Assembly (NCBI RefSeq): GCF_045037415.1
Contig: NZ_CP173438.1
Length of the DNA: 64,000 nt
Strand: one strand, 5' to 3'
Origin: Escherichia coli
Lineage (GTDB): Bacteria; Pseudomonadota; Gammaproteobacteria; Enterobacterales; Enterobacteriaceae
Under the pieces are notes generated by a model. The model was not told the DNA's origin, made no database searches, and saw nothing but the letters and a program-made list of their open reading frames with translations. Below, in pieces: positions 229 to 907 of the stretch. Position 1 is the stretch's first letter. Every line of letters begins with the position of its first letter. The translations under genes were made by a program, and so were the position numbers.

Positions 229-907
229 AGTATGCGTCGGGAATGGCCGATCTGTTCCCGGAACCTGAACACAGGATTTCAGTTTATACGGTCATAAAAT
301 TATTATTTTTCAACTGGTTATCTTCTTCATGTTTCACAAACCTTCATAAAATCACACACCTAAAATTAATTATCCATTTAATATCATAGAGTTGCGTATT
401 CAGGCCATAGATTCGACGGACAGTAAAACTGAAAAAAAATGAATTTCTTTTCATTCTTTTCAGTTCCTGTATCGCAGTACATCTCGAGGACTGGCACGGA
501 CTGGCGGTATCGTTTGTAAAAAATCCAGGCTGAAAATTTTTAGTGATATGAAAACCGCAGGCGGGTGCGGTGTAGTGCCGTTTTGGTCTGTCGAGCGTAT
601 ATTTTCCTTTTTCACGATTGCTGCATATCAAAACGAATGTGCAGATATCAGGCCGTGTCAAACCGTGAATCGTGGAGCCTAAATGCCCAAACTACGTTTG
701 TAGACCTAGCTAGGGGAAGGTTTCCACATATACTGCTACCTATCTTCCAGTCGCTGGTGAGGATCAAGGTAAGCTAACTGGTGAACAAGAAAAGTACTTT
801 CGTATCTTGCGTACTCGTTTTTTTTGATTAGTATGTACAGGTAGTAACTGGATGGTGAGAATTCGTCATAACTTATCAAATTGCATGATGTTTATAGAGT
901 ATGAGTA

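Follow-up and report, generated by a model that had tools for sequence, protein, structure and literature searches.

The 64-kb stretch of Escherichia coli DNA analyzed here (the window) opens inside an ogr/Delta-like zinc-finger gene with its stop at 228. This gene is followed in order by a 679-bp interval (229-907), the sce7726/sce7725 cassette, an integrase gene (int), tRNA-Arg(CCT), yfdC and mlaA. In a preliminary description, the interval was taken as a non-coding spacer with a tandem direct repeat and a possible terminator, which might carry a remnant of a packaging site (cos, held by the equivalent interval in satellite phage P4), the promoter of the cassette or a small RNA. All the features then described, i.e. 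the open reading frames (ORFs), the repeat and the hairpin with its T8 run, are present in the sequence, and the interpretation built on them was partly supported. From comparison with phage genomes, the segment between 351 and 604 is very likely the cos packaging site of an 11.0-kb P4-related satellite integrated at the tRNA gene argW. The interval as a whole is apparently composed of an intact-looking cos region, a hairpin at the end of the ogr gene and a leader private to the cassette. Its features are as follows (the cos region and its parts are listed without strand):

237-275, plus strand: candidate terminator or stabilizer hairpins directly after the ogr stop, a GC-rich one at 237-261 and a small second one at 264-275
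351-604: cos region, from the match to a phage-only profile and from blastn to ESSI-2-like phages
384-394: motif TCA-N4-GTTR resembling the site of integration host factor (IHF-like motif), ATATCATAGAGTTG in the window, from column counts over 112 sequences
427-465: nested (C)TGAAA inverted repeats, AACTGAAAAAAA / TTCTTTTCAGTT, from inverted repeats, a direct repeat and conservation
484-508: GC-rich block, consensus CCCCAG..CTGGCGCGG.CTGGCGG, from the conservation profile and alignments with phages and P4
513-541: A/T block TTTGTAAAAAA...GCTGAAAATTTTT, from the information profile and a palindrome, with a CTGAAAA motif at 530-536
551-590: cos core AAAACCGCAGGCGGGTGCGGTGTAGTGCCGTTTTGGTC, from the ends of the ESSI-2 record, a unique exact match and a 22-mer found in IMG/VR
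605-907, plus strand: cassette leader, from the end of sister-satellite homology, with a presumed promoter and 5' untranslated region

By blastn of positions 1-1000 against about 50,000 phage records, only the segment 424-590 was matched. These matches fall at the extreme terminus of the records for Cronobacter phage ESSI-2 and for E. coli phages ESSI2_ev015, ev129 and ev040, and also inside a Salmonella phage contig, S.Kent 1-2-1. The ESSI-2 record starts with GCGGGTGCGGTGTAGTGCCGTTTTT and finishes with ...GCAGGCGGGTGCGGTGTAG, and the 15-nt sequence GCGGGTGCGGTGTAG is found at both ends, as would be the case if the record included its cohesive end twice; the P2 record likewise repeats its 19-nt cos at both ends. 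The sequence at 561-575 of the window is identical to the terminal 15 nt of ESSI-2, and the joined ends of ESSI-2 are identical to 557-584. For the 19-mer at 557-575, one exact match was observed in the window against 0.01 expected. Judging from the phage termini, the cohesive-end sequence probably falls within about 557-579. The terminator scan detected three hairpin-plus-T matches, on both strands, at 554-581 inside the core (e.g. ACCGCACCCGCCTGCGGT on the minus strand), which probably reflect the dyad symmetry of cos and the G-rich core followed by GTTTT rather than terminators.

A peculiarity was noted in the record of ESSI2_ev040 (LR597638.1; locus L160, 1626-1667, corresponding to about 29625-29666 of the record), in which AGAGTAGA and TCGTCGGCAGCGTCAGATGTGTATAAGAGACAG are inserted within the cos core, between GCAGGCGGGTGC and GTGTAGCGCC. 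We take the former to be an Illumina i5 index and the latter a Nextera adapter, and the insertion resembles an artefact of assembly produced where the genome physically ends.

The ESSI-2-type phages used for comparison were ESSI-2 (Seongnamvirus), ESSI2_ev040 (Quadragintavirus), ev015, ev129, Salmonella S.Kent 1-2-1 and Yersinia vB_YenM_324. In ESSI-2 and related Peduoviridae, the core GCAGGCGGGTGCGGTGTAG(T/C)GC is identical to that of the window; in the ESSI-2 record it corresponds to the terminal redundancy. The flanking blocks (CTGAAA inverted repeats, GC block, TTTGTAGAAAA and AAAACCGC) share the order and spacing of the window over about 250 bp, with 72-77% identity. In the phages, the site occupies the left end of the genome, with the int/accessory region on one side and the portal gene on the other, and conservation runs on towards the portal. 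For the satellite, in contrast, the similarity ends about 45-50 bp past the core start and is followed by the defence cassette. The 22-mer GCAGGCGGGTGCGGTGTAGYGC of the core was detected in at least 120 contigs of IMG/VR. About 105 of these contigs are P2-family phages, in which the portal homologue to the right of the core ends at a distance of 190-330 bp (600-1700 bp in some), the same arrangement as that of cos and gene Q in P2. About 10 are satellites of the family described here, the ogr stop lying about 330-380 bp left of the core and an integrase gene to the right of it. The core stays 100% identical between satellites whose surrounding sequences differ by 9-16%, indicating selection.

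A profile hidden Markov model was then built from 104 phage-only cos regions, each adjoining a portal gene. Using this profile, nhmmer detected the window segment 351-604 with 168 bits (E=4.7e-51). The satellites of E. coli (three cargo types), Yersinia, Providencia and Enterobacter all matched the same span of the profile, about 24-280 of 330, with 134-190 bits. The phages, unlike the satellites, match onward through the portal-side flank. The fixed segment of about 255 bp that is common to satellites and phages was accordingly taken as the functional cos. The suggestion of a packaging-site remnant in the interval was right with respect to the presence of a cos site, but the site is apparently intact and is not of P4 type.

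Conservation within the site was analyzed by alignment of 112 distinct sequences from -230 to +100 around the core. Conserved blocks were found at about 355-395, 427-466, 484-508, 513-541, 551-590 and 600-607, and these coincide with repeats and inverted repeats. In the IHF-like motif, the counts among the 112 sequences were T384 87, C385 104, A386 82, G391 70, T392 95, T393 109 and R394 112, with variable positions at 387-390. The exact WATCAR-N4-TTR sequence is present in 13 of the 112 against about 0.002 expected per site; as the strict consensus is limited to these 13, the motif is referred to herein as IHF-like, and IHF may bind at 384-394. The 427-465 element, high in information content over the 112 sequences, also includes an inner TGAA..TTCA pair and two tandem copies of TTCTTTTCA; Tandem Repeats Finder reports 445-462. 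CTGAAA/TTTCAG occurs three times within 420-545 against 0.15 expected. From this repeat pattern, the 427-465 sequence is likely a protein-binding element of cos.

The GC-rich block includes two CTGGC half-sites, spaced by 10 bp and conserved across phages and satellites. The tandem direct repeat of the preliminary description, GGACTGGCAC GGACTGGCGG at 488-507, was confirmed: the 8-mer GGACTGGC is exact at 488-495 and 498-505, and the full 10-mers match at 9 of 10 positions. It is a short two-copy match by itself, and was not reported by Tandem Repeats Finder at score 30. By alignment, this repeat is the version in the window of the GC-rich cos block conserved across the 112 cos regions, rather than a separate feature.

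The possibility that the interval carries a real small gene was next considered. A 105-aa ORF at 344-661 (minus strand) and a 70-aa ORF at 565-777 (plus strand) both exist, and in the records of two related phages the cos region is covered by an annotated 'hypothetical protein'. No Pfam match was obtained for the 105-aa, 70-aa and 48-aa ORFs of the interval. The frames are broken or absent in the homologous intervals of six other elements (E. coli satellites, Yersinia, Providencia and Enterobacter), and no conserved frame with synonymous-biased substitutions was seen in the homologues. In addition, the two longer ORFs cross the cos core and the phage genome termini, and the Prokaryotic Genome Annotation Pipeline (PGAP) calls no gene in the interval in the complete genomes listed. 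A small gene at this place is therefore scarcely credible: a coding role for the three ORFs was ruled out by the lost frames and the lack of a Pfam match, in agreement with the initial view that the interval contains no convincing ORF, and the homologues show no conserved gene across it.

To the left of cos, conservation among sister satellites amounts to 84-91% over 229-350. The 232-290 segment folds into a minimum-free-energy structure of -16.2 kcal/mol (z=-0.96), and a GC hairpin at the position matching 237-261 is found in four sequence-divergent satellite lineages, with z of -3.6, -3.4, -2.4 and -1.4. The 237-261 hairpin probably ends or stabilizes the ogr transcript, and is a better terminator candidate than the hairpin at 793-825, though its U-tracts are poor. 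The latter, pointed out at the outset as a possible terminator, is indeed present: a 5-bp stem AGTAC/GTACT (794-798 and 811-815) with two GC pairs and a loop of about 12 nt is followed by T8 at 818-825. It is absent from the terminator scan, and the fold of 770-840 gives z=0.15, 105 of 200 shuffled sequences folding as well. The 793-825 structure was thus rejected as a Rho-independent terminator for its weak AT-rich stem, long loop and shuffle-level fold; only the T8 run fits.

The homology with sister satellites carrying other cargo stops at about 590-605, and the 605-907 sequence was therefore assigned as the leader of the sce7726/sce7725 cassette. E. coli genomes contain this sequence only as copies of at least 99% identity (420 genomes), and the search of plasmids and of the phage collection gave no match to it. 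The leaders of the Yersinia, Providencia and Enterobacter cassettes are 160-330 bp long and poorly conserved. Divergent homologues were sought upstream of sce7726 genes of 64-66% identity, and no conserved element was found there beyond a T-tract and a TGATT(A/G)GTATGT match to Enterobacter. In these three relatives, a T-rich tract is followed by the promoter-like TTGCAT-N16-TA(C/G)(C/T)AT; the window has T8 without equivalent hexamers. The promoter scan of the plus strand upstream of the ATG gave nothing at 9 or more of 12 matches, except for one site overlapping the start codon. In a lenient scan the best candidates were TGTACA-17-GAGAAT (834-862) and TTATCA-16-TAGAGT (873-900), both with 8 of 12. 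The cassette promoter proposed for the spacer probably lies within 605-907, but a convincing site was not located, and the recommended prediction of promoters and terminators yielded weak promoter candidates and, as terminator-like sequences, only the probably incidental matches inside the cos core.

These results bear on two other interpretations. In one, the interval would be mainly a regulatory leader of sce7726/sce7725 with the T8 hairpin as an insulator, and the cos-like sequence would be a decayed relic. The cassette-specific nature of 605-907, the T-rich tract with promoter-like hexamers in the three relatives, the T8 and weak promoter candidates of the window, and the absence of a resident helper with this cos from the genomes of sequence type 131 (ST131) all agree with it. 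On the other hand, the insulating hairpin folds no better than shuffled sequences, while the cos core and all the conserved blocks are intact, the extent of the profile match being the same as, and the score similar to, those of other satellites from five genera, and the core remains 100% identical despite the divergence around it. For 605-907 the leader interpretation is compatible with that of cos and complements it, but it leaves 351-604 unexplained; we consider it improbable as an account of the whole interval.

In the other, the interval would encode a small regulatory or structured RNA of the cassette or of satellite immunity, like the P4 CI RNA. In its favour, P4 immunity uses a small RNA, and the interval is a long non-coding stretch beside a defence cassette. 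The Rfam 15 scan of 1-4500 at E<=10 detected only tRNA and chance-level matches, the sole match within 229-907 being to a snoRNA whose gathering score is 45, with 17 bits reached (E=6.8). The folds of 600-907 (z=-0.21) and 770-840 carry no signal, 605-907 is not conserved in homologous cassettes or outside the ST131 clone, and the conservation of 351-604 tracks DNA motifs of phage genome ends, not paired helices. The small RNA once suggested for this spacer is thus highly unlikely.

The assignment of 351-604 as cos relies on what was observed, i.e. the sequence identity, the profile match, the portal adjacency in phages, the conservation pattern, the non-coding state and the boundaries. Several points weigh against it. 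The ESSI-2 termini are known from a database record, not from a verifiable cohesive-end determination, and the redundancy of ESSI-2 is 15 nt against the 19-nt overhang of P2. The profile phages were chosen by exact 22-nt match to the window, and core identity is in the profile by construction, leaving only the flanks, with the 200 bp to the left, as independent evidence. With 168 bits, the window scores lower than the 5th percentile of the phages (174.7), although this comparison is biased, the phages being in the training set and matching also the portal-side flank. No second copy of cos was found in the 420 genomes carrying the ST131-type element; with no resident helper detected, the element may currently be immobile. 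Finally, cleavage and packaging of this copy, the proteins binding to it and the identity of the helper are deduced from sequence comparison.

The site was compared with those of P4 and P2. Ziermann and Calendar are said to have described, in 1990, 19-nt 5' cohesive ends for cos of P4 and its helper P2. The P2-type cos is characterized by the 19-nt overhang GGCGAGGCGGGGAAAGCAC, or a near-identical one as in phage 186, within 55 bp that are conserved among P2-related phages (PMC3931495; PMC5247547). By eye, about 10 of these 19 nt are identical in the window sequence 559-577, GGCGGGTGCGGTGTAGTGC; the overhang is thus not that of P2/P4. No P2 or P4 match was obtained by blastn of 1-1000 against the phage collection, and the ESSI-2-type profile gave no nhmmer match at E<=10 to the P2 and P4 cos junctions; the alignment to P4 cos that had been suggested as a check was negative by both programs. 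When alignment with P2/P4 was forced with MAFFT, collinear ACTGAAAA upstream, a GGCGCGG.CTG block and AAAACCGC were observed before a G-rich core initiated by GGCG; at the place collinear with the GC-rich block, P4 has GCGCCATTCCCGGCGCGGTCTGAGCG / GGCGCGGTCTGAGCG. The cos of the window thus appears to be distantly related to, but distinct in type from, that of P2/P4. A non-P2 type of cos would imply that the helpers are to be sought among phages other than P2 and 186.

With respect to position, the site agrees with the P2/P4 type, being located between late/transactivation genes and the hotspot-int region. The order in P4 is psu - cos - gop/beta/cII - int, and that in the satellite is ogr/Delta - cos - sce7726/sce7725 - int - tRNA, with a single ogr/Delta gene beside cos where P4 has psu. 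The logic of P4/P2, in which the satellite copies the packaging signal of the helper, would apply likewise here. The order ogr - cos - variable cargo - int - tRNA mirrors that of P4, the arrangement described in PMC9122126, and supports the identification as cos.

The satellite itself was delimited in E. coli SK1144 (locus L007), in which the same DNA forms the right end of an island. The 20-bp direct repeats ATGGTGTCCCCTGCAGGAAT are located at 6839-6858 and 17848-17867 of L007, 11,009 bp apart, and one copy is the 3' end of tRNA-Arg argW. The island encodes AlpA, a 286-aa protein, a homologue of the P2-family major capsid protein, an Icd-like protein, DUF5375, an alpha-type primase (Zn-ribbon/Toprim/DUF927), Ogr/Delta, the cassette and Int. 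Its genes and sites within the window are:

1-228, plus strand: 3' part of the ogr/Delta-like zinc-finger gene encoding a 90-aa protein (PGAP; L007 13728-14000 equals window -44 to 228; PF04606 on record), the final backbone gene of the satellite ahead of cos
908-1789, plus strand: sce7726 family protein (PGAP name), related to P4 cII
1811-2761, plus strand: sce7725 family protein (PGAP name)
2741-3916, minus strand: tyrosine integrase of the satellite (PGAP), about 40% identical to P4 Int
4077-4151, minus strand: tRNA-Arg(CCT) argW (ARAGORN and Rfam), with the right attachment repeat at 4076-4095

By tblastn with P4 proteins, Int (40% identity), alpha (37%) and orf88/AlpA (46%) were detected, together with homologues of a cI-region protein and of cII. 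The Pfam domains Ogr_Delta, Phage_AlpA and DUF927/Toprim are on record for island proteins; P4 delta gave no tblastn match to the island at E<=1. Against the whole 11-kb element, P4 Sid gave no match, and those of Psu (E=0.56) and Epsilon (E=0.018 over 25 aa) were at chance level. P4-like satellites are defined by int, psu, delta, sid, alpha, epsilon and alpA, of which up to two may be absent (PMC8628076). The element contains int, alpha, alpA and delta, but lacks three, sid, psu and epsilon, and thus lies outside this definition as judged by sequence search alone rather than by the published HMMs. We therefore refer to it, on the basis of sequence relationship, as a P4-related satellite-like element.

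The homologue of the P2-family major capsid protein (334 aa; L007 8443-9447) is preceded by the 286-aa protein without family (from 7560). The Yersinia and Providencia relatives (L154; L157 1-985) add a GPO_N (scaffold N-terminal) gene. In a phage contig with the same cos (L072), the capsid gene is 51% identical to the homologue of the satellite. Among cos-type Staphylococcus aureus pathogenicity islands (SaPIs), those such as SaPIbov5 carry the capsid-protein homologue Ccm (PMC8569155). SaPIbov5 and the present satellite both combine a helper-type cos with a homologue of the helper major capsid protein, whereas they are unrelated in lineage and host. By analogy with Ccm of SaPIbov5, the capsid homologue may be a device for redirection of capsid size.

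Several repeats were also noted in L007. ACTGGTAACAGAGGTAACA is present twice as a 19-bp direct repeat at 13478-13613, a region that precedes the start of ogr by about 120-250 bp, and a 32-bp imperfect repeat with the palindrome GTTACCAGT...ACTGGTAAC is located between the primase gene and ogr. These repeats upstream of ogr could be a late-promoter/activator-binding region or origin iterons. At the left end of the island, the pentanucleotide CCCAG is repeated about 14 times in tandem immediately within attL (6979-7048).

The cargo next to cos was related to known defence loci. The gop-beta-cII locus of P4 is an experimentally validated system. The sce7726 protein matches the PADLOC model 'cll' (E=1.2e-18) and P4 cII by BLASTP (39% over 61 aa, E=9e-11), while no significant BLASTP similarity to P4 beta was detected for the sce7725 protein. 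The cassette lacks gop, and only the cII-like part of gop-beta-cII is recognizably shared. In sister satellites, an ATP-dependent nuclease or Kiwa (KwaA/KwaB) is found at the place of the cassette, and the sce7726/sce7725 cassette occurs beside the same type of cos in satellites of Yersinia and Providencia, as well as in an Enterobacter remnant. Rousset et al. (2022, PMC9122126) located defence hotspots of P4-like satellites and P2-like phages beside cos, between psu and int; the variable anti-phage cargo there lies directly beside cos and before int, as it does here. The location of cos beside a defence hotspot is thus a known arrangement, which is extended here by a type of cos, a satellite lineage and an implied helper group.

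The Enterobacter remnant (GCA_053364675.1; L151 5300-6000) is a degraded copy of the satellite family and sits between proA and a CAT gene. In it, about 40 terminal codons of ogr are joined to the 3' end of a tRNA and followed by an intact-looking cos and sce7726/sce7725. The module of cos and cassette has outlived the rest of the satellite in this case. In a sister satellite of E. coli N3 (L008 2799-4012), the primase gene is split by ISEc31, with ogr, cos and cargo intact.

The distribution of this cos was examined in 5,426 complete E. coli genomes. The cos type was detected in 498 genomes, almost always as a single copy. The ST131-type copy accounts for 415-420 genomes (about 8%), ST131 being apparent from the strain names listed. 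About 30 other E. coli genomes carry cos copies of 60-80% identity, of prophage type in the one example examined (L010). E. coli phages with the same cos are ESSI2_ev040, ev015 and ev129. With 11.0 kb, the island has about 0.36-0.38 of the length of candidate helper genomes (28.8-30.9 kb), a ratio close to that of P4 to P2 (11.6 and 33.6 kb). Contigs derived from virions and ending at cos were sought, and all those detected were in chromosomal contexts.

Taking 351-604 as a functional cos, mobilization of the satellite may be described as follows. The satellite would excise and replicate, and the terminase of a helper, belonging to the ESSI-2 group (Seongnamvirus, Quadragintavirus and relatives, Peduoviridae), would recognize about 200 bp on the ogr side of the core. 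The elements recognized would be the IHF-like site, the nested CTGAAA inverted repeats, the CTGGCGCGG.CTGGCGG block and the further CTGAAAA box. The terminase would then introduce staggered nicks in the core GCAGGCGGGTGCGGTGTAGTGC (557-578), and the satellite DNA would be packaged into capsids derived from the helper. We also propose, tentatively and with some doubt, that the element represents an undescribed P4-related lineage which parasitizes ESSI-2-type Peduoviridae, not P2 or 186, by mimicry of cos together with its own capsid homologue. The order of the proposed lineage would be AlpA - 286-aa protein - capsid homologue - Icd-like - alpha-type primase - Ogr - cos - hotspot - Int, without Sid, Psu and Epsilon.

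With the assignment of cos, an unannotated gap of 680 bp becomes a defined functional element, and the left edge of the defence hotspot is placed within about 20-30 bp of the cos core. The predicted mobilizers of the argW defence island are ESSI-2 and Quadragintavirus-type phages, not P2. Because psu and sid are not detectable in this lineage, which shuffles Kiwa, nuclease and sce7726/sce7725, searches for P4 hotspots based on psu and int would probably miss it. The comparison between satellite and phages represents a natural deletion map, in which the requirement of this type of cos extends from the core start for about 205 bp in one direction and about 50 bp in the other, and this map could aid the design of transducing particles based on ESSI-2-type phages. 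If the proposal is true, satellites sharing phage cos over only about 255 bp would define the minimal functional cos of this phage group, and the pandemic ST131 clone would carry a mobilizable defence island, of which the helper would be an incoming phage rather than a resident one.

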